A stretch of DNA of 64,000 nucleotides from Escherichia coli (GTDB lineage Bacteria > Pseudomonadota > Gammaproteobacteria > Enterobacterales > Enterobacteriaceae): the NCBI RefSeq assembly GCF_030013595.1, contig NZ_CP122768.1, one strand, 5' to 3'. Shown here piece by piece: positions 5,150 to 64,000 of the stretch; the stretch's first letter is position 1, and each line of letters starts with the position of its first letter. The notes under the pieces are model-generated. The model saw nothing but the letters and a program-made list of their open reading frames with translations, did no database searches and was not told where the DNA came from. The position numbers were made by a program, and so were the translations under genes.

Positions 5150-5151
5150 AT

Positions 5152-11680: not shown

Positions 11681-12823
<1,143 letters not shown>

Positions 12824-13137: not shown

Positions 13138-13201
13138 ACGTCGATTATCGCCGAACTTCGCGGCATACTTTGCTTATTCTCCTTCGCCTAAAGGAACGTT
13201 T

Positions 13202-13585: not shown

Positions 13586-13663
13586 CGCATTTTTCTCGCT
13601 TACCATTTCATCTCGATCCTTGTAATCTGCTGGCACGCAAAATTACTTTCACATGGAGTCTTT

Positions 13664-14317: not shown

Positions 14318-14376
14318 TTCTCTCTTGCCGGGCATCTGCCCGGCTATTTCCCCTCAGATTCTCCTGATTTGCATAA

Positions 14377-15672
<1,296 letters not shown>

Positions 15673-15673
15673 T

Positions 15674-15712
15674 TAAAAAAACCGCTCTTATCGAATGGAT
15701 GAGAGCGGTTTC
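15674..15712. terminator. Bidirectional intrinsic terminator between mscM and pheP
   Basis: A-run, stem accgctct / agagcggt with loop, then T-rich tail; sits between convergent genes. Confidence 0.65.
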
Positions 15713-15752
15713 GGATGGTTGACATCATTTTGTCGGATACGGCGTGAATGCC

Positions 15753-17129
15753 TTATTTCCGACGCAGCGTTTTAAACGCTACAAACAGGAATACAATCCA
15801 CACTGGCAGCAGAATCGCTGACAAGCGCATATCATCCATCGTGCACATCAGCAGCAAAATCATGCCGAGGAAGGCGATGCAGAGATAGTTGCCGAACGGA
15901 TAGAGCAGCGCCTTAAACTGTGTTTCACGCCCCTGACGACGCATCGCTGCACGAAAACGCAGATGCGCCAGGCAGATCATAATCCAGTTCAACAGCAGCG
16001 TTGCTACCACCAGCGCCATCAGCAGACCAAACGCTTTTTGCGGCAGCAGATAGTTGATTAACACCACCAGCGAAGTGATCGCTCCGGAAAGCATCAGCGA
16101 GTTAATCGGCACACCGCGACGGCTGACGCGAGTCAAAAACTTTGGCGCATTACCCTGCACTGAAAGGCCAAACAGCATCCGACTGTTAGAATAAACCCCG
16201 CTGTTATACACCGATAACGATGCCACCAGAATGACGAAGTTCAGCGCAGAAGCTACCACGTTGCTGTCGAGATTATGGAAAATCATCACAAACGGGCTAC
16301 TGTTGGATTTCACTTCCACCCACGGATAGAGTGCCAGTAAAACCACCAGTGAGCCGATATAAAACAGCAGGATGCGATACACCACCTGATTCACTGCTTT
16401 AGGGATGCTTTTTTCCGGATCGCGCGCTTCAGCGGCAGTAATCCCAATCAACTCCAGACCGCCGAAAGAGAACATAATTACCGCCAGCGACAAAATCAGC
16501 CCATTCCAGCCGGTGGCAAAAAAACCACCGTAGCGCCAGAGGTTGTCGATACTGGCTTTCTCGCCGCCGTGACCAGAAAACAGCAGCCACAGACCAAAGC
16601 CGATCATACCGATGATCGCCAGCACTTTAATCAGCGCAAACCAGAACTCGGTTTCGCCATATAAGCGCACGTTCACCAGGTTAACGGCGTTGATGATAAT
16701 AAAGAAGGCGGCAGCCCAAATCCACGTTGGAACATCCGGGAACCAGTACTGCATATAGATGCCCGCAGCGGTCAACTCTGCCATTCCCACCAGCACGAAC
16801 ATCACCCAGTAGTTCCAGCCAGAGAGGAAGCCCGCAAACGGTCCCCAGTATTTATAGGCAAAGTGGGCAAATGAACCGGATACCGGCTCTTCGACCACCA
16901 TCTCGCCGAGCTGGCGCATAATCAGGAAAGCGATGATCCCAGCGACGCCGTAGCCCAGCAATACAGCCGGACCCGCCATCTGAATCGCCGGGCCAATGCC
17001 AAGAAACAGACCAGTACCAATTGCGCCACCCAGCGCAATCAGTTGAATATGACGGTTATGTAATCCGCGATGAAGCGTCGGCTCTTGATTCGACGCAGTA
17101 TCTTCCGATACGGTTGACGCGTTTTTCAC
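15753..17129 (-). CDS. pheP: Phenylalanine-specific permease (APC family)
   Basis: ORF 15753..17165; start assigned to GTG at 17127-17129 (VKNASTVSEDTASNQEPTLHRGLHNRHIQLIALGGAIGTGLF...). Confidence 0.9.
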   Translation of the reverse strand: MKNASTVSEDTASNQEPTLHRGLHNRHIQLIALGGAIGTGLFLGIGPAIQMAGPAVLLGYGVAGIIAFLIMRQLGEMVVEEPVSGSFAHFAYKYWGPFAGFLSGWNYWVMFVLVGMAELTAAGIYMQYWFPDVPTWIWAAAFFIIINAVNLVNVRLYGETEFWFALIKVLAIIGMIGFGLWLLFSGHGGEKASIDNLWRYGGFFATGWNGLILSLAVIMFSFGGLELIGITAAEARDPEKSIPKAVNQVVYRILLFYIGSLVVLLALYPWVEVKSNSSPFVMIFHNLDSNVVASALNFVILVASLSVYNSGVYSNSRMLFGLSVQGNAPKFLTRVSRRGVPINSLMLSGAITSLVVLINYLLPQKAFGLLMALVVATLLLNWIMICLAHLRFRAAMRRQGRETQFKALLYPFGNYLCIAFLGMILLLMCTMDDMRLSAILLPVWIVFLFVAFKTLRRK

Positions 17130-17230
17130 GCCTTTCCCCTGTGTGTCTTTTTTGTTGAGGGGCACCTTTTAACATTTAGTGCCCATCGTCGCAAGACACA
17201 ATCCACACGGTTAAACCGGGTATCCTGCTT

Positions 17231-34468: not shown

Positions 34469-35953
34469 ATGCGAAAAATAATTACTCATTTCAAAGTTGT
34501 TTTAACGTTACTTCTACCAGTAACCGTATCTGCCCAGCAGATACAGTGGCAATCCTGTATGGCCAGTCAATTCAACCACTGGTTTGGTGAGGAAAAACCG
34601 TCTCCTGACTTACTATGTGGTTATTTGTCTGTTCCATTAAAATATACAGACACAGGCGGAGATGCTTCTTATGAAAAAAAATCACAAGTCAAACTAGCGT
34701 TGACAAAATTGCCGGCAAAAAGCAAGCATAAAGGAAGTATCCTGATAATAAGTGGTGGTCCCGGGTTACCAGGCATAAATCCTTATATTAACTTTGACTG
34801 GCCAGTCACAAATCTTCGTGAGTCATGGGATATTATTGGATTTGATCCTCGAGGCGTCGGACAGTCCACTCCGACAATAAACTGCCGGCAATCAGATACA
34901 GAGACTCAGGAAAACATAACCGAAAAGCAACAAGTATTAAATAAAATTAATGCCTGTATCCATAATACCGGAGCCGAAGTCATTCGCCATATCGGCTCTA
35001 ACGAGGCTGTATACGATATTGATCGTATTAGGCAAGCCTTGGGGGATAAACAACTGACAGCCGTGGCGTATTCGTATGGAACTCAAATTGCAGCCTTATA
35101 TGCAGAACGTTTTCCCTACAACGTAAGATCTATCGTTCTTGATGGAGTCGTCGATATCGATGACCTGGAGGACAACTTCACATGGCAACTCAAACAGGCA
35201 CAGAGTTATCAGGAAACGTTTGATCGCTTTGCATCCTGGTGTGCGCGTACAAAAAGTTGCCCGCTTTCTTCAGACAGAGATAAGGCAATAACTCACTTCC
35301 ATGAGCTATTATCAAAATTACATCACAAACCTTTATTAGACAGTAAGGGAGAAAATATATCTTCAGGTGAACTCATATCATTAACAACAGACCTTCTGCT
35401 ATGGCGTTCATCATGGCCAACCCTTGCAACTGCCATACGCCAGTTCTCTCAGGGGATTGTCAGTAATGAAATTGAAACTGCGCTCAGTGCTCCGATAGCC
35501 TCAGAAGAGTCAAGCGATGCTTCGGGGGTAATCCTCTGTGTAGATCAGGGGGATGAGCAATTAACACCAGAAGAGCGAAAATCCCGAAAAGACGCTCTTG
35601 CGAATGCCTTCCCGGCTATTAACTTTGACAATGGACGTTCCGATTCACCTGATTTTTGTGAATTATGGCCAATACATAGCGACCTGAACAAAACTCGCCT
35701 GAAAAATACTGTTCTGCCCTCTGGTTTACTGTTTGTAGCACACAAATACGACCCAACAACGCCCTGGATTAATGCCCGTAAGATGGCAGAGAAATTTTCC
35801 AGCCCGTTACTAACAATAAATGGTGATGGGCATACATTAGCTCTCACCGGAGTTAATTTATGTGTAGATAAAGCAGTTGTACATCACCTGATCACTCCAC
35901 AAAAAATAGAAAATATATACTGCCCAGGAAATTCTGAAGCAGAAATACAATAA
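34469..35953 (+). CDS. Secreted alpha/beta-hydrolase, S33 (tripeptidyl-aminopeptidase-like) family; prophage cargo
   Basis: 494-aa ORF with N-terminal signal peptide (MRKIITHFKVVLTLLLPVTVSA), nucleophile elbow AYSYGT, AT-rich codon usage. Family call is from motifs only. Confidence 0.6.
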   Translation: MRKIITHFKVVLTLLLPVTVSAQQIQWQSCMASQFNHWFGEEKPSPDLLCGYLSVPLKYTDTGGDASYEKKSQVKLALTKLPAKSKHKGSILIISGGPGLPGINPYINFDWPVTNLRESWDIIGFDPRGVGQSTPTINCRQSDTETQENITEKQQVLNKINACIHNTGAEVIRHIGSNEAVYDIDRIRQALGDKQLTAVAYSYGTQIAALYAERFPYNVRSIVLDGVVDIDDLEDNFTWQLKQAQSYQETFDRFASWCARTKSCPLSSDRDKAITHFHELLSKLHHKPLLDSKGENISSGELISLTTDLLLWRSSWPTLATAIRQFSQGIVSNEIETALSAPIASEESSDASGVILCVDQGDEQLTPEERKSRKDALANAFPAINFDNGRSDSPDFCELWPIHSDLNKTRLKNTVLPSGLLFVAHKYDPTTPWINARKMAEKFSSPLLTINGDGHTLALTGVNLCVDKAVVHHLITPQKIENIYCPGNSEAEIQ

Positions 35954-37221: not shown

Positions 37222-37806
37222 TTACTCCCTGACAGGGTTCGTAGGCCACTCAATATCAGGTGCAGTTGATGTATCAACACGGTTCAGCAACACCCGATAC
37301 TTTTTCCAGGCTTCCAGCAACGAGGTTTCTCCCTCCGTTGCGATTTCCAGATCTGCAGCATCCTGAAGTGGCGCAATATGCTCACTGGCTACCTGCATCA
37401 GGCTGTTTTTTGTTTCTTCCGCCTCCCGGATCCGGAACAGTTTTTCTGCTTCTGCATCTTTCACCCAGGTTGTGCCGTTCCACTTCTGAAACTCCCCTTC
37501 CGGGGATAACCAGGTGACATTTTCCGGTAATGAGCCGAGTTCAGAAATAAATAACGCGTCGCCGGAAGCCACGTCATAGACGGTTTTACCCCGATGGTCT
37601 TCAACGAGATGCCACGATGCCTCATCACTGTTGAAAACAGCCACAAAGCCAGCCGGAATATCTGGCGGTGCAATATCGGTACTGTTTGCTGGCAGACCTG
37701 TATGAGGCGGAATATATGCGTCACCTTCACCAATAAATTCATTAGTTCCGGCCAGCAGATTATAAATTTTTATGGTCCGTGGTTGTTCACTCATTCTGAA
37801 TGCCAT
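37222..37806 (-). CDS. tfa: Tail fibre assembly protein (lambda Tfa-like)
   Basis: 194-aa [42 protein letters not shown]... with C-terminal conserved block; start overlaps stf stop. Confidence 0.9.
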
Positions 37807-40800
37807 TATGCAAGCCTCACAATATAGTTAAATGCGATGTTTTTGACGGTGTTTTCCGCGTTACCAGCAGCGTTAACGGTGATGGTGTGTCCATGTGAGC
37901 CAATCGCAACCGAGTGCGTATGAGCACCAATACCGACAGTATGTGCGTGTGCACCTGCGCTTGCAGCAGTGCCGGACAGTGAGTGGGTATGTGCGCCAGC
38001 AGATGATGTTGCATAGTTTTGATTATGCACAACAGACAATCTTGTTGATGCACTACCAGCACCGGAGTTAGCACTAGCCGTGTTCACGTTGGCTAGTGAG
38101 TGTGTGTGTGCTCCAGCCGAGTTTGTAGAGCCGCTCACACTGTGTGTATGTGCCCCGGTGTTATTCGTAGATTTAGTGCCGTAATCAAACGACGATGTGG
38201 TTTTCGTACCCAAATCCGTACTTGATGCGCTGGCGCTGTGGGTGTGCGATTTAATGCCGTCCTGTTCCTGAGACAATACGGCACGACCACTGGCGGGCTT
38301 GCCCTTAATCGTCCAGCCACGCATATCAGGGATCACGCCTGACGGATAAGCAACTGCAAGTTTCGGGTATGCAGATTTGTCAAAAGTCTGCCCCTGCATC
38401 AGGGCATAACCAGACGGAACGGTATCTGATGGCCACGGAATTGGTGCGCCAACTGGGTAGCTTTCTGGTGGAAGATTTTTCGAGGTATAAACTTCTGCCC
38501 AGCCTTCCTCAAAACCATAGCCATCTCTTGAGGAACGGTAGAACAGACCTCCATTTCTGTAATGCGCCTTCATCTGCAGGGTCCGGCAACTTCCGACTCC
38601 GGTATAGAAGTTAACCAGAATATAGCTGTCGCCAGAGCGGGTGACATTGTAAGCGCCTGATTCGGCATTCCAGGGAACGCCACCATCCGCATCGGCATAT
38701 GTATCCGTTGCCCTTCTGGCAAAAGCAGCCACATGCGCGGCGGTTAAAGTAATATCTTTTGAACCATCAAACTCAACCCCAGAAACCAGTCTTGGCGTTT
38801 GCAGCTTTGTTGCTGTCAATGCGTTACCGTTCAGACTTGCAGACAGTTTGGTTCCAATAACCAGTTCGCCGGTTGCGTTATCAATAGCAAACGGTCTTAA
38901 TGTATTCCAGCCACCATAAACATCACCTTGATTGGTAAGCAGCAGGTAAGTTTTAGCGCCATCATTACGCCATAATGCCCCATACTCCCCACCTATCATT
39001 CGAATCTGATTACCACCACGCGCTACAATTTCGTCTGTGGCAAAAAGTTTTTTGCACGACAAGTTATCGTTAACGATTAACGAATGGGACTCATAAAAAC
39101 CACGCCCACTCTTAAAATCAAGGATAACGTCCGCCGCGATACATTCAGTCGCTGGAATTGTTGCCCCAAACTTATAGGTCGTATCATTAACAACGAGATC
39201 AGCACCAGGTGCGGATATTGACAGGCCATCTTCGATAAACGCAAAAACAGGGAAAGCAGCGCCATCAACATAGAACACAGAGCGCAAATCATCGCCCTTA
39301 TTACTCATCATTATTGAGTGGATGGCTCGTTCATTGTTTTGATATTGCCAGAACATTCCATAAGCATAACGCCCCCTGTCAGTCCAGCCACCAGGCATAA
39401 CAAATCCGTTAAACTCGCAGTTATTCATCGGATCGCCTGCGGTTCGCGTTGCCGTGGTGATAATGACCCTTGATGCCAGTTCGCTTACTGAGCCAGCAGA
39501 ACGCATAACAACAACAGGGTAATATTTTCCAGATGTTGCACCTGCAGGAGCGTTAACCCGCACATAACGCATACCACGCTTATCAGCAAAGTCTGTTTTA
39601 CTGACCGCGTTAATGTTGTTCAGGAAGCGTCCCTTATCGGGTATATCAGCGCCGTTCTGGTCTTTCTGCAGACGTTTCTCTGCATTGTCATAGGCTGATT
39701 TTACTGACTTTGGCGTTGCCGCCAGCGTTTCAGACGTACTGTTGGTCGCACTGCTGAGCTGTACTATCCCCTTTTTCGTCGTACTTGCATCCTCAAGCGC
39801 CACGGCGGATGCAATATCCTCTGCCCGTTTAGCTGCTGTCTCGGCGCGCGTTGCCGCGGATTCCGCCGTACTTTTGCTCTGTGCTGCCGCTGTCGCACTG
39901 CCAGCAGCCTCTGTCGCCTTCGTGGATGCCGTCGTGGCGCTGCCCTTCGCTGCTGACGCCTGTCTGGTCGCCTCATCTTTTGAAGCAGACGCAGATGATG
40001 CCGATGACGCCGCCGAACTGGCGGACGATGCCGCTGCCGTTTTTGAGGATTCTGCGCTGGTTTCCGACGCTTTCGCGTTCGTTTCGGATGTCTTCGCTGC
40101 GGATGCAGACCTCGCTGCTGCGCTGGCCTGTTCAGCGGCTTCGCCAGCCTTCGTTGTGGCTGTTGAAGCGGACAATGCAGCGCTTTCTGCCGATTTTCCG
40201 GCGGCGGTGGCACTGGCTGAGGCCTGCCCGGCACTTGTTGACGCTGCACTGGCAGACGACGCAGCCGCTGTTTTTGAGCCTGCCGCAGCTGAGGCGCTCT
40301 GTCCCGCTGCCGTTTCAGAAGACCTGGCGTTCGTCTCGGACGTTTTTGCCGCCTTCGCGGAATTTCCTGCCGCCGTTGCCGAGGAAGCTGCACTACTGGC
40401 GCTCGAGGCTGCGCTCGTTTCTGATGATTTTGCAGCCTCTTTTGAGGCCGCCGCATCCCGGGCCGAGGTCGCAGCTTCTGATGCCTTCGTGGTCGCGGTG
40501 GATGCAGATGTGGCTGCTGATTGTTGTGACGCTGAAGCATTCGTTTCTGACGTTTTCGCCGCACCGGCACTGGTGGCCGCCGCGCTTTTTGAGGACTCTG
40601 CAGCGGCAGCACTTTTTGATGCTTCAGTGGCCTTTGTTGATGCCGTTCCTGCGCTGGAAGACGCTGACTGAGCCGACGAAGCGGCCTGTCCGGCTGACGT
40701 GCTGGCTGCGCGTGCTGAGCCTGCAGCATCAGTCGCATGGGTTGCCGCCTCACGGGCAGATGTGCCGGCATCGCCGGCTGACTTCTTCGCGGCTGCCGTG

Positions 40801-41168
40801 TTCTGTGCCACCACGGACGCGTTACGCGCCACCTCTTCCACCATCAGCTCAAAACGGCGCAGTGCCTCCGGACGGGCATCATCCTCCGTCATGGCACCGA
40901 GAAAATCATTCAGCGTACCGGGTCGGGAATCTTCATACACTGTGATAGTCCCGGCATGTGACGGCGGGAATCCTTCCACCAACAGAATAACGCTGTACTG
41001 ACCGTACTCAACGTCCATACTGTAACGCCCGGCTTCATCCGGATTTTCTGAGGCCAGCGTGTTCACCACCACCGTGGTGCTGTTACGTTTTGCTTTCAGC
41101 TGGATTGTGCAGTTCTGTACCGGTTTTCCTGTGCCGTCTTTCAGTACACCTGAAATCTTTACTGCCAT
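37806..41168 (-). CDS. stf: Side tail fibre protein (lambda Stf-like), with long Ala/Ser-rich region and C-terminal HxH repeats
   Basis: ORF 37806..41174; begins (MNM)[31 protein letters not shown]...; about 480 aa of A/S/T-rich low complexity; C-terminus has repeated GAHTHS motifs. Confidence 0.9.
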
Positions 41169-41232
41169 ATTCACCCCACAAAAAAGCCCGCCTGAACCGG
41201 CGGGCTGTCATAACACTGTGTTACCTGGCTAA

Positions 41233-41832
41233 TCAGAATTTATAACCGACACCCACGATGAACCCGTCAGTGCGCCAGTCACCGCTGCCGGAGCCTTCAT
41301 AAGCGACGTCAACGGCCACGGATTCGGTCGGGTTAAACTGCACGCCAGCTCCCCACGCCAGAGACGTGTTGCTGTGGCGACCGTCATCACTTCCGGTCAG
41401 CACATCGTGCGTTTTCCCCTTGTTGTCAGTTACGCGGATATAATCTCCGGAGAAAGTCGACACACGGCTGTAAGCCATACCCGCCATCGCATACGCGCTG
41501 AACCATTCATTCACGCGCACAGACGGCCCCGCCATCACGCTGAACCAGCGGTTACGCACGGAATCTTCATGCCAGCGGGTATCGCTGTAATGCGTTTTTT
41601 GCTCATCTTCAGCGTTGGTATAACTGAATGACGTAATCAGCCCCAGCGTGTCCGTAAACTCATAACGGTATTTCACGTTAATCCCGTTCAGATTATCGCT
41701 GCCGGGAGCGTTCGTACGGGCATGAAGATACCCTGCGCTCAGTGTGGCCTGCTGCTCAGACGCCCATGCAGGCGCACCGGATACGGCCAGACAGATGGCT
41801 GCGGACAAAATGGCTGCACAAACTTTACGCAT
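41233..41832 (-). CDS. lom: Lom outer-membrane protein (Ail/Lom family; prophage moron)
   Basis: 199-aa ORF with signal peptide MRKVCAAILSAAICLAVSGAPAWA and beta-barrel-like C-terminus ending GYKF. Confidence 0.9.
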   Translation of the reverse strand: MRKVCAAILSAAICLAVSGAPAWASEQQATLSAGYLHARTNAPGSDNLNGINVKYRYEFTDTLGLITSFSYTNAEDEQKTHYSDTRWHEDSVRNRWFSVMAGPSVRVNEWFSAYAMAGMAYSRVSTFSGDYIRVTDNKGKTHDVLTGSDDGRHSNTSLAWGAGVQFNPTESVAVDVAYEGSGSGDWRTDGFIVGVGYKF

Positions 41833-41899: not shown

Positions 41900-44800
41900 T
41901 CAGCTGATACTGATGCCTGCGGTGGCTTTCTTCATCACCACAACCAGCAAATCGCTGATACTTGCTGTGGGATACCAGTTATTTACCAGCCATGCTGACA
42001 CCGAAAACTCCAGTGTCATGTGACCGTGACCGGCAGGCATATCAATAACACCACTGTAAATCAGCGTATTATCCAGCGCGGTACGGTTATAAATTTCAGC
42101 ACCGTTTTTCCGTACTATCAGACGGCATGAGGAGTAAATATCAGTATGCTCTTTCTCATGTTTAGCGCCGCTGAATGCCACCGCCGGAATAACAATCTGC
42201 CGGTCAAACGGCTGATCGTCATAAACCCTGACGGTGATGGTCCCTGATGGCCACCGTTCCGGTGCACGGGAGTCCCGGGGGAAAGCTTTGCCCACTGTTT
42301 TAACGAGATCGCCTTCAATCTGGTTCGCGGACAGTTTTCCCAGAACCCGACAGTTCTCGTTAATCGTGACGTTGTTGAGCGTCCCGGAGTTCGCATTCAC
42401 GTTACCGCTGATATCGGCATTTTTCGCCGTCAGCCGCCCGTCCGGTGTCAGGGAAAATGCCGGTGGATTTCCGCCGCTGGTAATGGTGGGAGCCGTCAGG
42501 CGTTTCAGGAACACGTCGTTCATGAATATCTGATCGCCCTGACCAACAAACATCGGCTTTGTGTTGCCATTCGCAGGATTAATCATCGCAATCCGGTCAG
42601 CAGCCAGAAGCACCTGACTCTGCATACCTGCTGGCGTATTCTCAATACCGGCTCCGATACCCGCAATATAAAGGCGTCCGTCCTTCATCTGCTGCAGTTT
42701 CACGGCCCACATGCTGTTCAGGTTATTATTTGTATCAACCTGAACTTTCTGTATCTGCTGGATTGCCGCGCTCTGATTTTCCAGTTTCTTATTGACGGTC
42801 TGTGTGATTTCATTGCTGACATCCGTAATGGACGTCCTGATTTCAGCCAGGTCAGGCGCAAGCTGATCGTTATCAATCTGCGTCCACAGCTCCTGAGCCA
42901 GATGGGTTTTCCCTATCTCGCCTTTGAAAAAATCCAGATAGCCGGATGCGTCATCACTCGGCTGACCGACAGCCTCCACGAATGCCGATTTGCCAACAGT
43001 GTTCACACTGCGAACGTAAAAATAATAATCATGGCCCGGCTTAATATTGATACTGGCAGCTATCCAGTACAGCGCCGTACCAAGATAGCGCGCTGTGGTT
43101 TCAACCTGCCTGATATCCGCAATCCGCTTTTCCGAGAACCAGAACTCAAACTGTACCGTCGGATCATAAACGGCAAGATGCGGCGTGGCGGTTATCTGAA
43201 AATAGCCCGGCGTCAGCTCAATCCGCGACGGTGCTGCCGGTGCGGCAATCCGGAACGATACCGATGCCGGATCGCCCTGCTGTCCCCACGCATTTACCGC
43301 CCGGACTGTCAGCCTGTAGTTCCCCAGCGCCAGCTGCCTGAAGCGGTATGTGGTTTCCGTCGTCCGGGCCGTGCTGACCAGCCGCTCACTGCCGTCATCG
43401 GCGGCCACGGTCAGGCGAAGCATAAAGCTCACACCCTTCACCACCTTCGGCGTGTCCCAGCGCGCCAGCACCTGATACTCCCCACTGTCTGCGGTGACTT
43501 CTGCGGTCAGGTGCTGCACCGCTGGCGGCGTGACACCATTCACCGTGCCGCTCTGGTCGCCGTCAAAGTGCGCCCCGTTATCCACGATGGCTTCTTTCTC
43601 CGGTACATGCTGCACGGCAGTGATGGCATACGTGCCGTCATCGTTCTCACGGATACTCACACAGCGGAACAGGCGCTGGCGCAACGTCGGCAGCTTCAGC
43701 CCCCACACGCTGTATTCTGCAACGCCGTCAGGAACACGGCTCACTTTCACCTTCACACCGTCGGTGACGGACTGAACCTCCACGCTGACCGGATTGCCAC
43801 TTCCGTCAACCAGGCTTATCAGCGTGGTACCGGAGGATGGCAGCGTGATTTCACGGTCGAGCGTCAGCGTCCGGGTCTGGCTGTTCACCGCCAGCACGCG
43901 CCCGCCGGTGCTGATACCGGCATAGTCATCATCGCAGATTTCAATGACATCGCCCGGCACATGGCGAAGCCCTTCTGCGCCCACGCTGAAATCCACGGTC
44001 TGCGTTTCCAGCAGTTCCGTTTTAATCAGCCACAGCCCGGCGCGGTGTGCCTGCCCCCGGCTGGTACAGCCAAAGGCATCCATCTTCGTAACATTACGAC
44101 CGTAACGGGCAATGGCCTGCGTATCTTCAACAAGCTCTGTCGCCGTCTCCCAGCCGTTATCCGGGTCAATCCAGTTCACCTCAACGGCATTATGGCGGTC
44201 CTTCAGGGCGCTGAAGCTGTAGCGGAACGGCGCGCCATCATCCGGCATCACCACATTACTGCGGTTATAGGTCCACACCTTATCCGACGGTCGGTCCTGC
44301 ACGAACGTCAGCGTCTGCCCGTTCCATACCGGCATACAGCGCATCGCCGAGCAGAAATCGCTGAGCACATCCCACGCCTTACGTTGTGTGGTCAGCCAGG
44401 CATTACAGGTGATGCGCGGCTCCGTGCCGCCAAAACCGTCCGGCACCGACTGGTCGCAGTACTGGCCGATGACATACAGCGCCCATTTATCCACATCTGC
44501 CGCACCAAGACGTTTCCCCATGCCGTAGCGCGGATGGGTCAGCATATCCCACAGACACCAGGCCATGTTGTTGCTGTATGCTGGCTTAAACGTTCCATCC
44601 CAGATACCGCTGTATTGCCGCGTCTGCGGGTTATAGTTCGACGGCACCTGCAGAATGCGCCCGCGCAGATGATAATTACGGCTCACCTGCTGGCTGCCGA
44701 ACTGCTCCGAGTCCACCTGCACGCCGACCAGTGCCGTGTTCGGGTAGCACTGTTTCACATCTATAATTTCGGTGTATGACGACCAGAGCGTTTTGTTCTG

Positions 44801-45379
44801 CAGCTGGTCTGTGGTGCTGTCCGGCGTCATCCTGCGCATCCGGATACTGAACGGGCGCGGCGGCAGGTTATCCACCACCACCGAGGCCAGATACTGCGAG
44901 GTGGTTTTGCCCTTAATGGTGATGTCTTTTTCCGTCACCCAGCCACCGTTACGTTGTATCTGAACCAGCAGGCGGACTTCCGATGGATTCCTGTCACCCT
45001 TTGAGGTGGTTTCCACCAGTGCCTGCACACCGAAGGTAAAGCGCAGTCGGTCGATGTTTGCCGACGTGATGGCGCGGGTGATCGGCGTGTCGTATTTCAC
45101 TTCCGTACCCAGCACCGTCTCGGAGCCGGAGGATTCAAATCCCTCCGGCGGAGTCTGCTCCTGCTCACCAGCCCGGAACACCACCGTGACACCGGCGATG
45201 TTGGTATTCCCCTCACTGTCCAGCACCGGCGTACTGTTCAGCAGCACGCTTTTTAATCCATCCACCGGACCTTCAATCGGCCCTTCACTGATGGCATCAA
45301 TCACACTCAGCAACTGCGTGGATTTCAGGTTGTCCTTCGCTTCGCGCGGGGTATGCCCCTTACTGCTGCCTTTACCCAT
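41900..45379 (-). CDS. J: Tail tip / host-specificity protein J (central tail fibre)
   Basis: 1159-aa [50 protein letters not shown]... Confidence 0.95.
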
Positions 45380-45439: not shown

Positions 45440-46111
45440 TCAGCGACCAATCACCACAACCTGACCACCATCACCTTCATCTGCTGTGCTGATCTCCTGA
45501 GATACCACCCGCGACCCCACACGCATTTCACCGTACAGAACGGGCAGGACATTGCCCTGGGCAACCATATTATCCAGTGAAGAAAAATAGGTGTTCTGTT
45601 TGCCGTTATCCGTTGTCTGTGTGCGGGGGGTTTTGGGTTTAGGGGCCAGCATCTGCGCCACACCACCGAGCACCATACTGGCACCGAGAGAAAACAGGAT
45701 ACCGGTCATACCACCGGCCCCAATGGCTGCCCCCCATGCTGCAAGGGTGGCTCCGGCAGTAAAGAATGATCCGGCAATGGCGGCAGCCCCCAGAACAATC
45801 TGGAATACGCCCCCTGACTTGGCCCCGGCGACTCTGGGAACAATATGAATCACAGCGCCGTCAGGCAGAGTCTCATGTAACTGCGCCGTTAACCCGGACG
45901 TGCTGACGTCCCGCCCGGCAATCCGTACCTGATACCAGCCGTCGCTCAGTTTCTGACGAAACGCCGGGAGCTGTGTGGCCAGTGCGCGGATGGCTTCAGC
46001 CCCCGTTTTCACACGAAGGTCGATGCGGCGGCCAAATCGTTGCAAATCCCCGTAAAGGCAGATGCGTGCCATTCCCGGTGACGCCAGAGGGAGTGTGTGC
46101 GTCGCTGCCAT
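45440..46111 (-). CDS. I: Tail assembly protein I
   Basis: 223-aa ORF MAATHTLPLASPGMARICLYGDLQRFGRRIDLRVKTGAEAIRALATQL...; overlaps the 3' end of K by about 100 nt in another frame. Confidence 0.9.
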   Translation of the reverse strand: MAATHTLPLASPGMARICLYGDLQRFGRRIDLRVKTGAEAIRALATQLPAFRQKLSDGWYQVRIAGRDVSTSGLTAQLHETLPDGAVIHIVPRVAGAKSGGVFQIVLGAAAIAGSFFTAGATLAAWGAAIGAGGMTGILFSLGASMVLGGVAQMLAPKPKTPRTQTTDNGKQNTYFSSLDNMVAQGNVLPVLYGEMRVGSRVVSQEISTADEGDGGQVVVIGR

Positions 46112-46752
46112 TTGTCGGTGTACCTCTCTCGTTTGCTCAGTTGTTCAGGAATATGGTGCAGCAGCTCGCTGTCACCACAGTAAATGGCGGCATGATTCGG
46201 CACCGATGAACCAAAACAGCACAGCAGCACATCGCCCGGCTGCGCCGCTGACAACGGCACCTGATACAGCCCTGTGGCCTCCAGATTATCCAGATAGAGA
46301 TTCTGACCGTTACGCCACCAGTCATCCTCGCGATGAAAATCCGGCATCTCAATCCCCGCCAGATGGTAAGCATCCCGGAACAGCGTGTAACAGTCCGTCA
46401 CCCCGTGCTCAAAGCGCCGCCCGGTGAGATGCGGCACACAGCGGAACTTGTGAATCGCCCCCCGGCAGACCAGCCACCACGGCAAATCACTCTGCACCTG
46501 CAGCCGCCGGTCAGCCTCACTCAGCCAGGGCAGACCACCGGGATGACTGTGGACCAGTGCCACAATCTCACCCTGCATCTCTGCCTGCAGCCAGTCCTCC
46601 GGAGCCATCCGGAAATAATCCTCCGGCTCACCGGAAATATTCACGCAGGGAAAATATCTTTCCCCCTCCGGCGCTCTCACCACGAAGCCGCACGACTCCG
46701 CTGGCGCACATCGCCGGGCGTGCGCCAGAATCGCTGATTCTGTCTCTGTCAT
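46009..46752 (-). CDS. K: Tail tip assembly protein K (MPN/JAMM plus NlpC/P60-like)
   Basis: ORF 46009..46794; start placed at MTETESAILAHARRCAPAESCGFVV...; contains JAMM-like motif HSHPGGLPWLSEAD. A shorter form starting at MAPEDWLQ (46608) would give the 199-aa length I recall for lambda K. Confidence 0.8.
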   Translation of the reverse strand: MTETESAILAHARRCAPAESCGFVVRAPEGERYFPCVNISGEPEDYFRMAPEDWLQAEMQGEIVALVHSHPGGLPWLSEADRRLQVQSDLPWWLVCRGAIHKFRCVPHLTGRRFEHGVTDCYTLFRDAYHLAGIEMPDFHREDDWWRNGQNLYLDNLEATGLYQVPLSAAQPGDVLLCCFGSSVPNHAAIYCGDSELLHHIPEQLSKRERYTDKWQRRTHSLWRHREWHASAFTGICNDLAAASTFV

Positions 46753-46756
46753 GGGA

Positions 46757-47455
46757 TTACTGCGAAAGTTTGTTAATGGAAAGGAAGCCGCCAAAGTTGC
46801 CGACGTTATTGCGAAACTTACAGCCGCTCAGGCATTTGCTGCATTTATCCTTCGTGATATCGGACGTCGGCTGGTCATATTCATCCGCGACTGCCGGACC
46901 GTGATAACCGCACTCATCACCGCGATAGGTCCAGGTGCAGGTGTTGGCCAGCATGATACGTCCCGGAAAAACAGCGCCATCCGTTTCCGTCGGCGTGGAC
47001 AGTACAAAGGAGGCACTCACCGCGCTCAGTTCGCTGCACTGCTCGATGCGCCAGCGGCTGATCACCTCCTGCTCCGGATCGGCGTCACTGTTTCCGTTGA
47101 CGAAGTTCACCGCATCCAGAAAACGGGCGTAAACCTTACGCCGGACCACCGTTCCGCCGACCAGACTCTGCAGATCTTCCGCCATCCCGGTGACCATACC
47201 GTACAGGTTAGAAACCGTCAGCGTGGGGCGCGTACTGGTGCCTTTGCCATTCAGTTCAAAACCACTCCCCTGAATGGGATACGGCTGATACTGTCGCCCC
47301 TGCCAGGTGACCGGCACACCTTTTTCGTTCTGCTCATTACAGAAAAAATAACGTTCTCCACCGACCTCTGTCAGGTCGATTTCCCAGAGCACCACGCTGG
47401 CCGACTGCTCCGCACGGGTGCATTCATTCAGTGTTTCCTGCCGGATATCCTGCAT
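46757..47455 (-). CDS. L: Tail tip protein L
   Basis: 232-aa ORF MQDIRQETLNECTRAEQSASVVLWEIDLTEVGGERYFFCNEQNEKG...; Cys cluster near C-terminus. Confidence 0.95.
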   Translation of the reverse strand: MQDIRQETLNECTRAEQSASVVLWEIDLTEVGGERYFFCNEQNEKGVPVTWQGRQYQPYPIQGSGFELNGKGTSTRPTLTVSNLYGMVTGMAEDLQSLVGGTVVRRKVYARFLDAVNFVNGNSDADPEQEVISRWRIEQCSELSAVSASFVLSTPTETDGAVFPGRIMLANTCTWTYRGDECGYHGPAVADEYDQPTSDITKDKCSKCLSGCKFRNNVGNFGGFLSINKLSQ

Positions 47456-47784
47456 CAGTTCACCACCTGTTCAAACTCTGCGCTGAACTCAACACGCAGC
47501 ATACTGACCCGCGACGACCATTTTGCGCAGGTCACCTTTATCTGCCGCCACTCATAAGGCGGCGTCCACAGAAAGGCTTTCCAGCCCCCGTGCTCTTCCA
47601 GAAACGACTCCAGTACCGTGGCCTCCTCACGGGGGACAGAAAGCGTCACGCTGTACGTTTTCAGGTTGGCATTCAGCCCGGCAGGCGCTCGCTGGGAATA
47701 GCCATCACCAAAGCGCACCTTTCTTACAGAAGGGGCCGAAGCCACATCCATACCGGGTTTCACTTTCCAGCGGAAGGTTTTCAT
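47455..47784 (-). CDS. M: Tail tip protein M
   Basis: 109-aa ORF MKTFRWKVKPGMDVASAPSVRKVRFGDGYSQRAPAGLNANLKTYSV... Confidence 0.95.
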   Translation of the reverse strand: MKTFRWKVKPGMDVASAPSVRKVRFGDGYSQRAPAGLNANLKTYSVTLSVPREEATVLESFLEEHGGWKAFLWTPPYEWRQIKVTCAKWSSRVSMLRVEFSAEFEQVVN

Positions 47785-50342
47785 CGTCCACCTCCGGAGA
47801 ACAGTCCACCATCACGCATCTGTGTCTGAATTTCATCACGGGCACCCTTGCGGGCCATGTCATACACCGCCTTCAGAGCAGCCGGACCTATCTGCCCGTT
47901 CGTGCCGTCGTTGTTAATCACCACATGGTTATTCTGCTCAAACGTCCCGGACGCCTGCGACCGGCTGTCAGCCAGACTGCCCGGTGTACCGACATAACCA
48001 CCGGTGGCATAGCCGCGCATCAGCCGGTAGAGATTCCCCACGCCAATCCGGCTGGTTGCCTCCTTTGTGAAGACAAATTCACCACGGTGAACAATCCCCG
48101 CTGGCTCATATTTGCCGCCGGTTCCCGTAAATCCTCCGGTTGCAAAATGGAATTTCGCCGCAGCGGCCTGAATGGCTGTACCGCCTGACGCGGATGCGCC
48201 GCCACCAACAGCCCCGCCAATAGCGCTGCCGATACTCCCGACAATCCCCACCATTGCCTGCTTAAGCAGAATTTCTGTCATCATGGACAGCACGGAACGG
48301 GTGAAGCTGCGCCAGTTCTGCTCACTGCCGGTCAGCATCGCCGCCATATTCTGTGCAATACCATCAAAGGTCTGCGTGGCTGCACTTTTTACCTGCGACA
48401 TACTGTCCGTGGCGCTCTCTTCCCACTCACTCCAGCCGGACTTCAGGCCTGCCATCCAGCTCCCGCGAAGCTGGTCTTCAGCCGCCCAGGTCTTTTTCTG
48501 CTCTGACATGACGTTATTCAGCGCCAGCGGATTATCGCCATACTGTTCCTTCAGGCGCTGTTCCGTGGCTTCCCGTTCTGCCTGCCGGTCAGTCAGCCCC
48601 CGGCTTTTCGCATCAATGGCGGCCCGTTTTGCCCGTTGCTGCTGTGCGAATTTATCCGCCTGCTGCGCCAGCGCGTTCAGGCGCTCCTGATACGTAACCT
48701 TGTCGCCAAGTGCAGCCAGCTGGAGTTTGTACTCCAGCGTCTCATCTTTATGCGCCAGCAGGGATTTCTCCTGTGCAGACAGCTGGCGACGTTGCGCCGC
48801 CTCCTCCAGTACCGCGAACTGACTCTCCGCCTTCCACAAATCCCGGCGCTGCTGGCTGATTTTCTCATTTGCTCCGGCATGCTTCTCCAGCGTCCGGAGT
48901 TCAGCCTGAAGCGTCAGCAGGGCAGCATGAGCACTGTCTTCCTGACGATCGCCCGCAGACACCTTCACGCCGGACTGTTTCGGCTTTTTCAGCGTCGCTT
49001 CATAGTCCTTTTTCGCCGCCGCCATCAGCGTGTTGTAATCTGCCTGCAGAATTTTCCCGTCCTTCAGTGCCTTGTTCAGTTCTTCCTGACGGGCGGTATA
49101 TTTCTCCAGCGGCGTCTGCAGCCGTTCGTAAGCTTTCTGCGCCTCTTCGGTATATTTCAGCCGTGACGCTTCAGTATCGCTCTGCTGCTGCGCATTTTTG
49201 TCCTGTTGACTCTGCTGTTCAGCCTTCTTTCTCGCGGCTTCAAGCGCAAGACGGGCCTTTTCACGATCATCCCAGTAACGCGCCCGCGCTTCATCGTTAA
49301 CAAAATAATCATCCTTGCGCAGACTCCAGATGTCGTCCGCTTTCTTAAACGCAGCCTCTGCCTTAATCAGCATCTCCTGAGCGGTATCAGGACGACCAAT
49401 ATCCAGCACCGCATCCCACATGGATTTGAATGCCCGCGCTGTCCTGTCTGCCCAGGTCTCCAGCGTACCCATGTTCTCTTTCAGGCGGCGGGTCTGGTCA
49501 TCAAACCCTTTCGTCGCGGCCTCGTTCGCCGCCTGCAATGCCCCGGCTTCATCGCCGGAACGCTGCAACTGAGCAACATACGCAATCTGCTCCGCCGTCA
49601 CGTTATGGAACTGGCGTGCCATCGCTGTCAGCCCTGACGTCGGGTCTGTGGTCAGCTTCCCGAAGGCTTCAGCGACCTTGTCCACCTCCACGCCGGATGC
49701 AGAGGAGAAACGCGCCACACTCTGGCTGATGGATGCAATCTGAGCCTCACCGCTTACTCCCGCCTTAACCAGTGCGCTGAGTGACTCGCTGGTCTGGTTA
49801 AACGTCAGCCCTGCCGCCTGCCCGGCTCTGGACAGGACCAGCATACGATCTGCCGTCAGACCCGACTGATTGCCGGAAAGGACCAGCGTTTTGTTGAAAT
49901 CGGACAGGGTTGAGTTGCCCTGATACCAGGCATACGCCAGCGCACCGGTCGCCACCGCCAGCGAGGTGGCCCCGACCATCGGCAGGGTGATCGCACCGGC
50001 AAGCCCCCTGAACATGGGGATCATCCCGCCGAAGGAGTCCTTCACCTGACCACCCTGTTGCAGCAGGATCAGCCACGGACTTTGCCCGCCTGCAAGCTGC
50101 GTGGCCACGTCGGTGAACTGCGCAGGCAGCATACGCATGGCAGCTTTATACTGCCCGACGGAAATCCCCGCTTTCTGTGCAGCCAGCGCCTGTCGGCTCA
50201 GCGACTGTTCAACGACTGCCGCTGTTTTTTTCGCATCACTTTCCGTACCGGAAAAATGACGCCTGACTCTGGCCATCTGCTCGTCAAATCTGGCCGCATC
50301 CAGACTTAAATCAACGACCAGATCGCCTACCGGTTCAGCCAT
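47781..50342 (-). CDS. H: Tail tape measure protein H
   Basis: 853-aa ORF MAEPVGDLVVDLSLDAARFDEQMARVRRHFSG...; long coiled-coil-like central region. Confidence 0.95.
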   Translation of the reverse strand: MAEPVGDLVVDLSLDAARFDEQMARVRRHFSGTESDAKKTAAVVEQSLSRQALAAQKAGISVGQYKAAMRMLPAQFTDVATQLAGGQSPWLILLQQGGQVKDSFGGMIPMFRGLAGAITLPMVGATSLAVATGALAYAWYQGNSTLSDFNKTLVLSGNQSGLTADRMLVLSRAGQAAGLTFNQTSESLSALVKAGVSGEAQIASISQSVARFSSASGVEVDKVAEAFGKLTTDPTSGLTAMARQFHNVTAEQIAYVAQLQRSGDEAGALQAANEAATKGFDDQTRRLKENMGTLETWADRTARAFKSMWDAVLDIGRPDTAQEMLIKAEAAFKKADDIWSLRKDDYFVNDEARARYWDDREKARLALEAARKKAEQQSQQDKNAQQQSDTEASRLKYTEEAQKAYERLQTPLEKYTARQEELNKALKDGKILQADYNTLMAAAKKDYEATLKKPKQSGVKVSAGDRQEDSAHAALLTLQAELRTLEKHAGANEKISQQRRDLWKAESQFAVLEEAAQRRQLSAQEKSLLAHKDETLEYKLQLAALGDKVTYQERLNALAQQADKFAQQQRAKRAAIDAKSRGLTDRQAEREATEQRLKEQYGDNPLALNNVMSEQKKTWAAEDQLRGSWMAGLKSGWSEWEESATDSMSQVKSAATQTFDGIAQNMAAMLTGSEQNWRSFTRSVLSMMTEILLKQAMVGIVGSIGSAIGGAVGGGASASGGTAIQAAAAKFHFATGGFTGTGGKYEPAGIVHRGEFVFTKEATSRIGVGNLYRLMRGYATGGYVGTPGSLADSRSQASGTFEQNNHVVINNDGTNGQIGPAALKAVYDMARKGARDEIQTQMRDGGLFSGGGR

Positions 50343-56463: not shown

Positions 56464-60144
<3,681 letters not shown>

Positions 60145-60170
<26 letters not shown>

Positions 60171-60690
60171 TCAGCAACCCCGGTATCAGTTCATCCAGCG
60201 CGGCTGCTTTGTTCATGGCTTTGATGATATCCCGTTTCAGGAAATCAACATGTCGGTTTTCCAGTTCCGGAAAACGCCGCTGCACCGACAGGGGGATCCC
60301 GTCGAGAATACTGGCAATTTCACCTGCGATCCGCGACAGCACGAAAGTACAGAATGCGGTTTCCACCACTTCAGCGGAGTCTCTGGCATTCTTCAGTTCC
60401 TGTGCGTCGGCCTGCGCACGCGTAAGTCGATGGCGTTCGTACTCAATAGTCCCTGGCTGGAGATCTGTCTCGCTGGCCTGCCGCAGTTCTTCAACTTCCC
60501 GGCGCAGCTTTTCGTTCTCAATTTCAGCATCCCTTTCGGCATACCATTTTATAACGGCGGCAGAGTCATAAAGCACCTCATTACCCTTGCCACCGCCTCG
60601 CAGAACGGGCATTCCCTGTTCCTGCCAGTTCTGAATGGTACGGATACTCGCACCGAAAATGTCAGCCAGCTGCTTTTTGTTGACTTCCAT
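60145..60690 (-). CDS. Nu1: Terminase small subunit Nu1
   Basis: 181-aa ORF MEVNKKQLADIFGASIRTIQNWQEQGMPVLRGGGKGNEVLYDSAAVIKWYAERD... with N-terminal HTH; overlaps A start. Confidence 0.95.
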
Positions 60691-60855
60691 TGTTCATTCC
60701 ACGGACAAAAACAGAGAAAGGAAACGACAAAGGCCAAAAAGCCCGTTTTCAGCACCTGTCGTTTCCTTTCTTTTCAGGGGGTATTTTAAATAAAAACATT
60801 AAGTTACGACGAAGAAGAACGGAAACACCTTAAACCGGAAAATTTTCATAAATAG

Positions 60856-60896
60856 CGAAAACCCGCGAGGTCGCCGCCCCGTAACCTGTCGGATCG
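60856..60896 (-). other. cos site (cosN with adjacent cosB side toward Nu1)
   Basis: Plus strand gcgaaaacccgcgaggtcgccgccccgtaacctgtcggatc is the reverse complement of the lambda cohesive-end region; aggtcgccgccc (60868-60879) corresponds to the 12-nt cohesive end GGGCGGCGACCT. Confidence 0.85.
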
Positions 60897-61078
60897 CCGG
60901 AAAGGACCCGCAAAATGATAATAATTATCATCTACATGTCACAACGTGCATCTACGCCATCAAACCACGTCAAATAATCAATTATGACGCAGGTATCGTA
61001 TTAATTGATCCGCATCAACTTAACGTAAAAACAACTTCAGACAATACAAATCAGCGACACTGAATACGGGGCAACCTC

Positions 61079-61273
61079 ATGTCAACGAAGAACAGAACCC
61101 GCAGAACAACAACCCGCAACATCCGCTTTCCTAACCAAATGATTGAACAAATTAACATCGCTCTTGATCAAAAAGGGTCCGGGAATTTCTCAGCCTGGGT
61201 CATTGAAGCCTGCCGTCGGAGGCTAACGTCAGAAAAGAGAGCATATACATCAATTAAAAGTGATGAAGAATGA
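61079..61273 (+). CDS. ylcI: Small prophage protein (YlcI-like, DUF3950)
   Basis: 64-aa ORF MSTKNRTRRTTTRNIRFPNQMIEQINIALDQKGSGNFSAWVIEACRRRLTSEKRAYTSIKSDEE. Confidence 0.7.
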   Translation: MSTKNRTRRTTTRNIRFPNQMIEQINIALDQKGSGNFSAWVIEACRRRLTSEKRAYTSIKSDEE

Positions 61274-61437
61274 ACATCCCGCGTTCTTCCCTCCGAACAG
61301 GACGATATTGTAAATTCACTTAATTACGAGGGCATTGCAGTAATTGAGTTGCAGTTTTACCACTTTCCTGACAGTGACAGACTGCGTGTTGGCTCTGTCA
61401 CAGGTTAAGTAGTTTGAATGATTAGCAGTTATGGTGA

Positions 61438-61644
61438 TCAGTCAACCACCAGGGAATAATCCTTCATATTATTATCGTGCTTCACCAACGCTGCCTCAAT
61501 TGCCCTGAATGCTTCCAGAGACACCTTATGTTCTATACATGCAATTACAACATCAGGGTAACTCATAGAAATGGTGCTATTAAGCATATTTTTTACACGA
61601 ATCAGATCCACGGAGGGATCATCAGCAGATTGTTCTTTATTCAT
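61438..61644 (-). CDS. ybcW: Small prophage protein (YbcW-like)
   Basis: 68-aa [71 protein letters not shown]. Confidence 0.65.
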
Positions 61645-61806
61645 TTTGTCGCTCCATGCGCTTGCTCTTCATCTAGCGGTTAAAATATTACTTCAAATCT
61701 TTCTGTATGAAGATTTGAGCACGTTGGCCTTACATACATCTGTCGGTTGTATTTCCCTCCAGAATGCCAGCAGGACCGCACTTTGTTACACAACCAATAC
61801 TATTAA

Positions 61807-62340
61807 TTGAAAACATTCCTAATATTTGACATAAATCATCAACAAAACACAAAGAGGTCAGACCAGATTGAAACGATAAAAACGATAATGCAAACTACGC
61901 GCCCTCGTATCACATGGAAGGTTTTACCAATGGCTCAGGTTGCCATTTTTAAAGAAATATTCGATCAAGTGCGAAAAGATTTAAACTGTGAATTGTTTTA
62001 TTCTGAACTAAAACGTCACAATGTCTCACATTATATTTACTATCTAGCCACAGATAATATTCACATTGTGTTAGAAAACGATAACACTGTGTTAATAAAA
62101 GGACTTAAAAAGGTTGTAAATGTTAAATTCTCAAGAAATACGCATCTTATAGAAACGTCCTTTGATAGGTTGAAATCAAGAGAAATCACATTTCAGCAAT
62201 ACAGGGAAAATCTTGCTAAAGCAGGAGTTTTCCGATGGGTTACAAATATCCACGAACATAAAAGATATTACTATACCTTTGATAATTCATTACTATTTAC
62301 TGAGAGCATTCAGAACACTACACAAATCTTTCCACGCTAA
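61807..62340 (+). CDS. ybcV: Prophage protein (YbcV-like, DUF1398)
   Basis: 177-aa ORF; conserved part begins [33 protein letters not shown]..., so the true start may be internal at about 61888. Confidence 0.65.
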
Positions 62341-62630
62341 ATCATAACGTCCGGTTTCTTCCGTGTCAGCACCGGGGCGTTGGCATAATGCAATACGTGT
62401 ACGCGCTAAACCCTGTGTGCATCGTTTTTAATTATTCCCGGACACTCCCGCAGAGAAGTTCCCCGTCAGGGCTGTGGACATAGTTAATCCGGGAATACAA
62501 TGACGATTCATCGCACCTGACATACATTAATAAATATTAACAATATGAAATTTCAACTCATTGTTTAGGGTTTGTTTAATTTTCTACACATACGATTCTG
62601 CGAACTTCAAAAAGCATCGGGAATAACACC

Positions 62631-62924
62631 ATGAAAAAAATGCTACTCGCTACTGCGCTGGCCCTGCTTATTACAGGATGTGCTCAACAGACGTTTACTG
62701 TTCAAAACAAACAGACAGCAGTAGCACCAAAGGAAACCATCACCCATCATTTCTTCGTTTCTGGAATTGGGCAGAAGAAAACTGTCGATGCAGCCAAAAT
62801 TTGTGGCGGCGCAGAAAATGTTGTTAAAACAGAAACCCAGCAAACATTCGTAAATGGATTGCTCGGTTTTATTACTTTAGGCATTTATACTCCGCTGGAA
62901 GCGCGTGTGTATTGCTCAAAATAA
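62631..62924 (+). CDS. bor: Bor lipoprotein (serum-resistance moron)
   Basis: 97-aa ORF MKKMLLATALALLITGCAQQTFTVQNKQTAVAPKETITHHFFVSGIGQKKTVD... with lipobox ITGC; opposite orientation to the lysis genes. Confidence 0.9.
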   Translation: MKKMLLATALALLITGCAQQTFTVQNKQTAVAPKETITHHFFVSGIGQKKTVDAAKICGGAENVVKTETQQTFVNGLLGFITLGIYTPLEARVYCSK

Positions 62925-62955
62925 TTGCATGAGTTGCCCATCGATATGGTCAGCT

Positions 62956-63417
62956 CTATCTGCACTGCTCATTAATATACTTCTGGGTTCCTTCCAGTTG
63001 TTTTTGCATAGTGATCAGCCTCTCTCTGAGGGTGAAATAATCCCGTTCAGCGGTGTCTGCCAGTCGGGGGGAGGCTGCATTATCCACGCCGGAGGCCGTG
63101 GTGGCTTCACGCACTGACTGACAGACTGCTTTGATGTGCAACCGACGACGACCAGCGGCAACATCATCACGCAGAGCATCATTTTCAGCTTTCGCATCAG
63201 CTAACTCCTTCGTGTATTTTGCATCGAGCGCAGCAACATCACGCTGACGCATCTGCATGTCAGTAATTGCCGCGTTCGCTAGCTTCAGTTCTCTGGCATT
63301 TTTGTCGCGCTGGGCTTTGTAGGCGATTGCGTTATCACGGTAATGATTGACCGCCCATGACAGGCTGACGATGATGCAGATAATCAGAGCGGATATAATC
63401 GCGGTTACTCTGCTCAC
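62956..63417 (-). CDS. Rz: Spanin, inner-membrane subunit Rz
   Basis: ORF 62956..63429; product (V)[43 protein letters not shown]...; start most likely GTG at 63415-63417, immediately after the R stop. Confidence 0.85.
63015..63197 (-). CDS. Rz1: Spanin, outer-membrane lipoprotein subunit Rz1 (embedded in Rz in the +1 frame)
   Basis: 60-aa [63 protein letters not shown] with lipobox VVGC and Pro-rich segment, wholly inside Rz. Confidence 0.85.
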
Positions 63418-63911
63418 TGTTGCCCCCACAAACAGACTTCACGCTCAATCTCACGACGAGTCATCAGGCCTTTCCATTGCTTACCGCCAGCGTATGTCCA
63501 GCGACGCAGCTGATCACATGCGCCTTTGATATCGCCCTGGTTTATTTTGCGAAGAAGCGTCGATGTTCTAAAATTGCCAGCACCCACATTGTAAACGAAT
63601 GAGTAAAGAGCGCCGCGCGTTGTTTCCGGTATATCGACTTTGATATACGGGTTAATTTGTCTGGCGACAGTGGCAAGGTCTTTATTCAAGAGTGCTTTGC
63701 ATTCTGCTTTGGTATACGTTTTACCGAGCATGATGTCTTTTCCGGTGTGTCCGTGACATACAGTCCATACACCAACAATATCTTTGTATGGTATGTAGCT
63801 GACACCTTCCAGACCATCGTTACCACTTGGGCCAGTGATTAACACTGATGCTATAGCAATTGCTCCGCCACCAATAGCAGCAGCAACGGCTTTTCGTAAT
63901 GATGGAGGCAT
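63414..63911 (-). CDS. R: SAR endolysin (phage 21 R-type, T4-lysozyme fold)
   Basis: 165-aa [62 protein letters not shown]...; N-terminal Gly/Ala-rich hydrophobic SAR segment; not the lambda transglycosylase type. Confidence 0.9.
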
Positions 63912-64000
63912 TATTCACCTCTCGCAGCCTTGCGCTTATCTTCTTTAATCTTGAAATAAAGGTTTGTCAGGTACGTCAGCAGGCCAAATACCAGGCTACC
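63911..64000 (-). CDS. S: Holin (phage 21 S-type pinholin), C-terminal part only; 5' end outside window
   Basis: Minus-strand frame reads ...[29 protein letters not shown] then TAA, which overlaps the R start codon by one base. Confidence 0.7.

Follow-up and report, generated by a model that had tools for sequence, protein, structure and literature searches.

A very probable lysis cassette of the phage 21/434/DLP12 type in a lambdoid prophage of Escherichia coli

Is the lysis region of a prophage whose head and tail genes resemble those of lambda itself of the lambda kind, and if not, what does its composition say about the prophage that carries it? The question was raised by a 64,000-nucleotide stretch of Escherichia coli DNA (the window, here always meaning that whole stretch), one edge of which had been described, from the letters alone, as a mosaic of a phage-21-type pinholin and signal-arrest-release (SAR) endolysin with lambda-like genes. 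Reading the last 2.5 kb and listing the open reading frames showed S, R, Rz and Rz1 at the very end of the window, all encoded by the minus strand. Taken together, protein-family matches, alignments and the arrangement of the genes indicate that these genes very probably (about 95%) make up the standard set of late lysis genes in a lambdoid prophage, of the type found in phages 21 and 434 and in DLP12. The parts of the cassette and the neighbouring lipoprotein gene are as follows.

63911-64000, minus strand: 3' end of S (pinholin/antiholin, essD type), the last 29 codons and the TAA stop (63911-63913); translated part 63914-64000
63414-63911, minus strand: R (SAR endolysin, rrrD type, GH24 lysozyme), 165 aa, PF00959
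62956-63417, minus strand: Rz (i-spanin, rzpD type), 153 aa, PF03245
63015-63197, minus strand: Rz1 (o-spanin, rzoD type), 60 aa, inside Rz, PF06085
62631-62924, plus strand: bor (borD type lipoprotein gene), 97 aa, PF06291

All five parts scored far above the curated Pfam cut-offs and, since every listed element was found by Pfam and translation at a level beyond chance, the earlier observation was confirmed. The genes are tightly packed. The ATG of R overlaps the stop codon of S by one base (TAATG), and the GTG start of Rz at 63417 overlaps the stop codon of R (GTGA), so that Rz follows directly on R with an apparent GTG start, as the original prediction had it. An Rfam scan detected no RNA family inside the cassette. 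Consensus scans of 60700-64000 gave nine promoter matches (6.9±2.9 in shuffled controls) and six terminator matches (2.9±1.6 in shuffled controls), neither number being clearly above its controls.

R encodes a phage lysozyme (PF00959, Phage_lysozyme; E=1.3e-45, 155 bits) that is identical at all 165 positions both to the protein deposited as 'Lysozyme RrrD' of E. coli K-12 (PDB 4ZPU) and to R of phage 434. Identity to R21 of phage 21 (PDB 3HDE) extends to 163/165 residues and, as T98M and V160I are the sole differences, the SAR region and the catalytic region are the same in the two proteins. The catalytic residues are E35, D44 and T50, with spacings of 8 and 5 residues; these agree with the Glu-8X-Asp/Cys-5X-Thr triad that has been described for R21 and P1 Lyz (PMC3556154).

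The holin is incomplete because the window ends at 64000. The 42 N-terminal codons of S (dual start and TMD1) lie beyond that position, as do the late promoter and Q, and the N-terminus of S was read in relatives only. The 29-residue fragment present in the window scored 43 bits in its match to PF04971, 'Bacteriophage P21 holin S', for which the cut-off is 26 (E=4.5e-11), covered profile positions 39-63 of 64, and ended, in translation, in a cationic tail of 13 residues. It was identical to the corresponding part of phage 434 S and of K-12 EssD (29/29 aa, 90/90 nt) and shared 25/29 residues with S21, the DNA of the fragment being only 79% identical to that of phage 21; on alignment it was unrelated to lambda S. 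The prediction that the fragment is like an S21 pinholin was therefore borne out by the family match and by both alignments. Pinholins of the S21 family have two transmembrane segments, of which TMD1 is SAR-like, and a dual-start motif that gives rise to a 71-aa antiholin and a 68-aa holin. The K-12 gene, identical over the last 90 nt of the window, encodes a 71-aa protein that begins MKSMDK and has two uncharged stretches, and S of strain 2012EL-2448 begins MKFMDK and is annotated from Met4. In the source strain, the N-terminus of S, the late promoter and Q, all of them outside the window, could carry a lesion.

Rz matched PF03245 (Phage_lysis / Rz; E=5e-54, 182 bits) and contains an N-terminal transmembrane segment at residues 4-26 and cysteines at positions 14, 99 and 152. 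The protein is 152/153 identical to Rz of phage 434 and to K-12 RzpD, 150/153 to lambda Rz and 146/153 to that of phage 21. Its GTG start is common to phage 434 and K-12 rzpD, whereas lambda and phage 21 have ATG. A longer frame (157 aa, from a GTG at 63429) was considered and rejected, because the GTG at 63417 aligns with the lambda ATG and fits the curated annotation of both 434 and K-12. Rz1 (PF06085; E=4e-20, 71.7 bits) lies wholly within Rz, and its offset of 220 nt from the Rz start puts it in the +1 frame, where it had been predicted to be. It is identical to Rz1 of phage 434 and to K-12 RzoD (60/60 each) and nearly so to Rz1 of phage 21 (59/60) and lambda (58/60), and has a lipobox (VVG/C20), cysteines at 9, 20 and 29, and nine prolines in the mature part. 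Disulfide-forming cysteines and lipoprotein features have been described for the lambda spanins (PMC6139136), and C99 and C152 of Rz, together with C29 and the lipobox of Rz1, match them.

The region had first been presented as a cassette with 'embedded Rz/Rz1 and bor'. This description holds for Rz1, which is embedded in Rz, but not for bor, which lies outside 62956-64000, on the plus strand and downstream of the lysis genes. bor converges with them, placed and oriented as it is in lambda, 21 and 434. Its product (PF06291, Lambda_Bor; E=1.4e-30, 105.6 bits; lipobox ITG/C17) is identical to K-12 BorD (97/97) and matches Bor of lambda, phage 21 and phage 434 at 94, 89 and 87 of the 97 positions, respectively. 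bor is a separate lysogenic-conversion gene; its product, a lipoprotein of the outer membrane, is associated with resistance to serum.

The position at which likeness to lambda begins was located with blastn against the whole lambda genome. Identity began within the Rz start codon, at its second base (63416; lambda 45967); from there, window 63416-60880 corresponded to lambda 45967-48502 at 98.3%, and 60879-42883 to lambda 1-18002, from nu1 to J, at 97.3%. No lambda match was found by blastn for 63417-64000. Phages 21 and 434 both matched 64000-62574, phage 21 at 93.3%, and Rz, Rz1 and bor are common to lambda, 21 and 434 at 93-99% DNA identity. The head genes of phage 21, however, were only 66-69% identical to those of the window, against 97.3% for lambda 1-18002, in agreement with the earlier statement of lambda-like head and tail genes. 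As judged from these alignments, the module junction is the stop-start overlap of R and Rz (63416-63417), the holin side of which is of the 21/434 type only. A lambda-type cos junction was also seen at 60879/60880, where lambda 48502 corresponds to 60880 and lambda 1 to 60879, and ybcV (DUF1398), ybcW and ylcI (DUF3950) lie between bor and cos, as in the right end of lambda.

The description of the prophage as a lambda/21-type mosaic is thus correct, lambda-like virion genes being combined with S and R of the 21 type, but with qualifications: only S and R are of that type, and the word 'mosaic' holds relative to lambda only. The same combination is on record in phage 434, in the PhiR29, PhiR26 and PhiR30 phages and in DLP12; the arrangement is a standard lambdoid one and not a special mosaic.

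Comparison with named phages supports this placement. Phage 434 (OL657227) has lambda-like virion genes, 97.1% identical over 18 kb, and the DNA of S, R, Rz and Rz1 is 99.8-100% identical to that of the window. It differs in its Bor, that of the window being of the lambda/DLP12 type, and it is without the ybcV-ybcW segment between bor and cos, so that window 62574-61290 is unmatched. Phage 21 (OL657228; PDB 3HDE, 3HDF) shares the gene order, the overlaps, the Pfam families and, at the identities given above, R, Rz, Rz1 and the S tail, but differs in the S-fragment DNA, in the ATG start of Rz, in its head genes and in having other genes between bor and cos. In the curated annotation of 434 and 21 the genes are named antiholin, holin class II, SAR endolysin, i-spanin, o-spanin and outer-membrane lipoprotein complement inhibitor, with the same order and overlaps as in the window. 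Lambda itself shares Rz, Rz1 and Bor, the embedded +1 architecture of the spanin genes, and DNA that is 97-98% identical from the start codon of Rz, across cos, to J. Over 62500-64000, DNA identity was highest to phage PhiR29_1 (99.8%), followed by phage 434 (97.1%) and phage 21 (93.4%). In phages PhiR29_1, PhiR29_2, PhiR26_1 and PhiR30_1, matches to the cassette were 96.5-99.8% identical and those to the late region (25 kb) about 97%.

In K-12 MG1655, positions 577524-581661 (essD to aaaD, within DLP12) correspond to window 64000-59863 at 99.2% identity; RrrD, RzoD and BorD are identical as proteins, RzpD differs at one residue of 153, and the GTG start of Rz is shared. The right-hand junction is also the same, window 37660-36213 corresponding to tfaD..tfaX and 34286-28963 to ompT..nfrA. 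Over the prophage span compared (window 36213-64000, K-12 MG1655 577524-583104), the deletion in DLP12 amounts to about 22 kb, between the beginning of gene A (the aaaD pseudogene) and tfaD, whereas complete lambda-like head and tail genes are kept in the window (59863-37660). As K-12 is without these 22 kb, the window holds the undeleted form of a DLP12-type prophage, a counterpart of the cryptic DLP12 of K-12. The two also differ in that K-12 appY is replaced in the window by an alpha/beta-hydrolase gene, an ORF of 494 aa (PF00561, PF08386; 34469-35953, plus strand) between the right end of the prophage and ompT; the segment that carries it was present in 1249/5426 complete E. coli genomes.

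The DNA of the S fragment and R was found, at a coverage of at least 80%, in 3757 of the 5426 complete E. coli genomes, about two thirds. E. coli genomes that were 100% identical over 60000-64000 had RefSeq genes annotated there as essD, rrrD, rzpD, bor, ybcV, ybcW, ylcI and nohD, in a prophage adjoining tRNA-Arg and intD. Over 25 kb, the best match among complete E. coli genomes was 98.6%. Searches of the literature on DLP12 with rrrD and essD, and for an article describing the genomes of 434 and 21, gave no match. The DLP12 module itself has been described as the essD-ybcS-rzpD/rzoD operon, which is transcribed and influences vesiculation (PMC7918800).

In the late region of the prophage, Nu1, W, B, C, D, E, FI, FII, Z, U, V, G, T, H, M, L, K, I and J were all full length and without stops. 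The gene for the large subunit of terminase, A (58245-60170, minus strand), contained one in-frame TAG at codon 443 of 641 (58842-58844), where lambda has GAG. The prophage may be packaging-defective, or this amber codon may be a sequencing error; if the amber is real, DNA would not be packaged in a non-suppressing host. The prophage may then be unable to complete a productive cycle, and its cassette might act only as that of DLP12 does in K-12.

The strongest competing account concerns this role only and is compatible with the molecular mechanism proposed below: the cassette would be intact in a prophage unable to make particles, and would persist as a module domesticated by the host, as has been proposed for the DLP12 lysis operon in K-12, with roles in cell-wall maintenance, biofilm formation and vesicle control, and not as a working means of phage exit. 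We consider this unlikely. The amber codon in A speaks for it, as does the 99.2% identity to DLP12, of which only a few genes remain besides the lysis module; that module is reported to be transcribed and to affect vesiculation (PMC7918800). However, every other lambda late protein, Nu1 through J, is full length and has no stop, and both cassette and late region recur at 97-99.8% identity in the deposited phage genomes PhiR29_1, PhiR26_1 and PhiR30_1. Moreover, a lone amber could have arisen by recent mutation, could reflect a sequencing error, or could be suppressed in the host, and the early half of the prophage lies outside the window. A more specific version appears more doubtful still: that the prophage represents an early stage of the decay that produced DLP12, with virion genes complete and packaging abolished by the amber in A, and with selection keeping the fully intact cassette because it serves the host, in cell-wall turnover or in the control of vesicles or biofilm, and not phage release.

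Several features of the virion genes were recorded alongside. The closest complete genome, that of E. coli 2012EL-2448, has an IS3-family element in the tail assembly gene T (33277-34927 of its compared sequence), and the window copy is without it, which implies that different strains carry different single lesions in this prophage. The host-range genes diverge from lambda: J (41915-45379) has an overall identity of 83%, and past lambda 18002 its DNA is no longer homologous; the Lom homologue (41233-41832) is only 44% identical to lambda Lom; and the side tail fibre gene (37806-41174) is an uninterrupted ORF of 1122 aa, compared with the split orf-401/orf-314 of lambda. A full-length match to the Rfam sRNA IS009 (225.7 bits; 37265-37463, minus strand) lies inside the tail-fibre-assembly gene (37222-37806). 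Two further Rfam matches fell in the chromosomal part of the window, one to ES036 sRNA (42.2 bits; 8912-8953, plus strand) and one to the sok antitoxin RNA (83.7 bits; 11246-11400, minus strand), the latter implying a locus of the hok/sok type.

How would such a cassette lyse the cell? S21, R21, Rz21 and Rz1-21 of phage 21 are the experimental paradigm of lysis by a pinholin and a SAR endolysin. What the window shows is sequence identity or near-identity to characterised proteins, and from these we infer the mechanism here. Late transcription would start from a Q-dependent promoter beyond the window, and the S21-family pinholin would accumulate in the inner membrane. Sec would export the endolysin, whose N-terminal SAR helix, weakly hydrophobic and uncleaved, would keep it inactive in the membrane. 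At the programmed time, holes of about 2 nm made by the pinholin would collapse the membrane potential; the SAR helix would then exit the bilayer, and the GH24 lysozyme (Glu35-8X-Asp44-5X-Thr50) would refold and degrade the murein. Finally, a complex of Rz in the inner membrane and Rz1, an outer-membrane lipoprotein, would disrupt the outer membrane. Each of the central steps has been described elsewhere: R21-type endolysins are exported by Sec and tethered inactive by an uncleaved SAR helix; the channels of S21, about 2 nm wide, are too small for the endolysin but collapse the proton-motive force, which leads to SAR release and activation; and the last, outer-membrane step needs Rz and Rz1 in the lambda and phage 21 pathways alike (PMC6116005, PMC6139136).

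Residues 8-31 of R, which follow R6-K7, form an uncharged segment of 24 residues, of which 50% are Gly or Ala and 62% Gly, Ala, Ser or Thr. The segment is identical to that of R21, in agreement with the Gly/Ala-rich hydrophobic SAR segment that had been predicted. It could instead be a signal peptide of the usual cleaved kind, or anchor R in the membrane permanently. A SAR domain and a signal anchor are inseparable by sequence alone, and the maximum Kyte-Doolittle value of the segment over 19 residues, 2.11, is near that of a normal transmembrane segment. Against this, residues 1-97 of R are the same as in R21, whose uncleaved and releasable SAR behaviour has experimental proof (reviewed in PMC6116005), and the Gly/Ala/Ser/Thr content of the uncharged stretch is about twice that of the Rz transmembrane segment (62% vs 30%), so that we regard a signal peptide or a fixed anchor as very improbable. 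Export of R by Sec without cleavage, followed by release from the membrane and activation on depolarisation, can thus be inferred from its 163/165 identity to R21, for which this behaviour is described (PMC6116005).

R was also compared with the endolysin of lambda. The only alignment was a spurious one of 20 residues with two identities, and the maximum Kyte-Doolittle value over 19 residues was 0.04 for lambda R. A lytic transglycosylase of the lambda R type would be recognised by similarity to lambda R and by the lack of an N-terminal hydrophobic segment; R has the segment and is without the similarity. The statement that the endolysin is not the lambda transglycosylase therefore stands, R being a GH24 lysozyme (PF00959), and the alignments that were to decide the matter revealed neither a missing SAR domain nor a transglycosylase. 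In lambda, S is a large-hole holin of 107 aa with three transmembrane segments and R a cytoplasmic transglycosylase, both unrelated to S and R here, and lysis proceeds by holin-mediated release of the enzyme and not by depolarisation-triggered release from the membrane. That the window carries such a canonical lambda cassette, as the 97-98% identity of Rz, Rz1, bor and the DNA onward through cos to J might suggest, is refuted by the alignments and was rejected as having next to no probability, since 63417-64000 is without a lambda match, R is a lysozyme with a hydrophobic N-terminus, and the S tail fits PF04971 and not lambda S.

The reading of the region as a standard lysis cassette of the 21/434/DLP12 type offers little for discovery: its components are textbook ones, already known in every part from solved structures, curated phage annotations and K-12 gene names, and are present in most E. 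coli genomes. With the lambda/21 boundary exactly at the overlap of R and Rz, the region nevertheless provides a clean example of recombination between lambdoid phages at gene borders. The value of the cassette lies in annotation, as it shows the prophage to be a near-complete relative of DLP12 that has the same right-hand junction with the chromosome.
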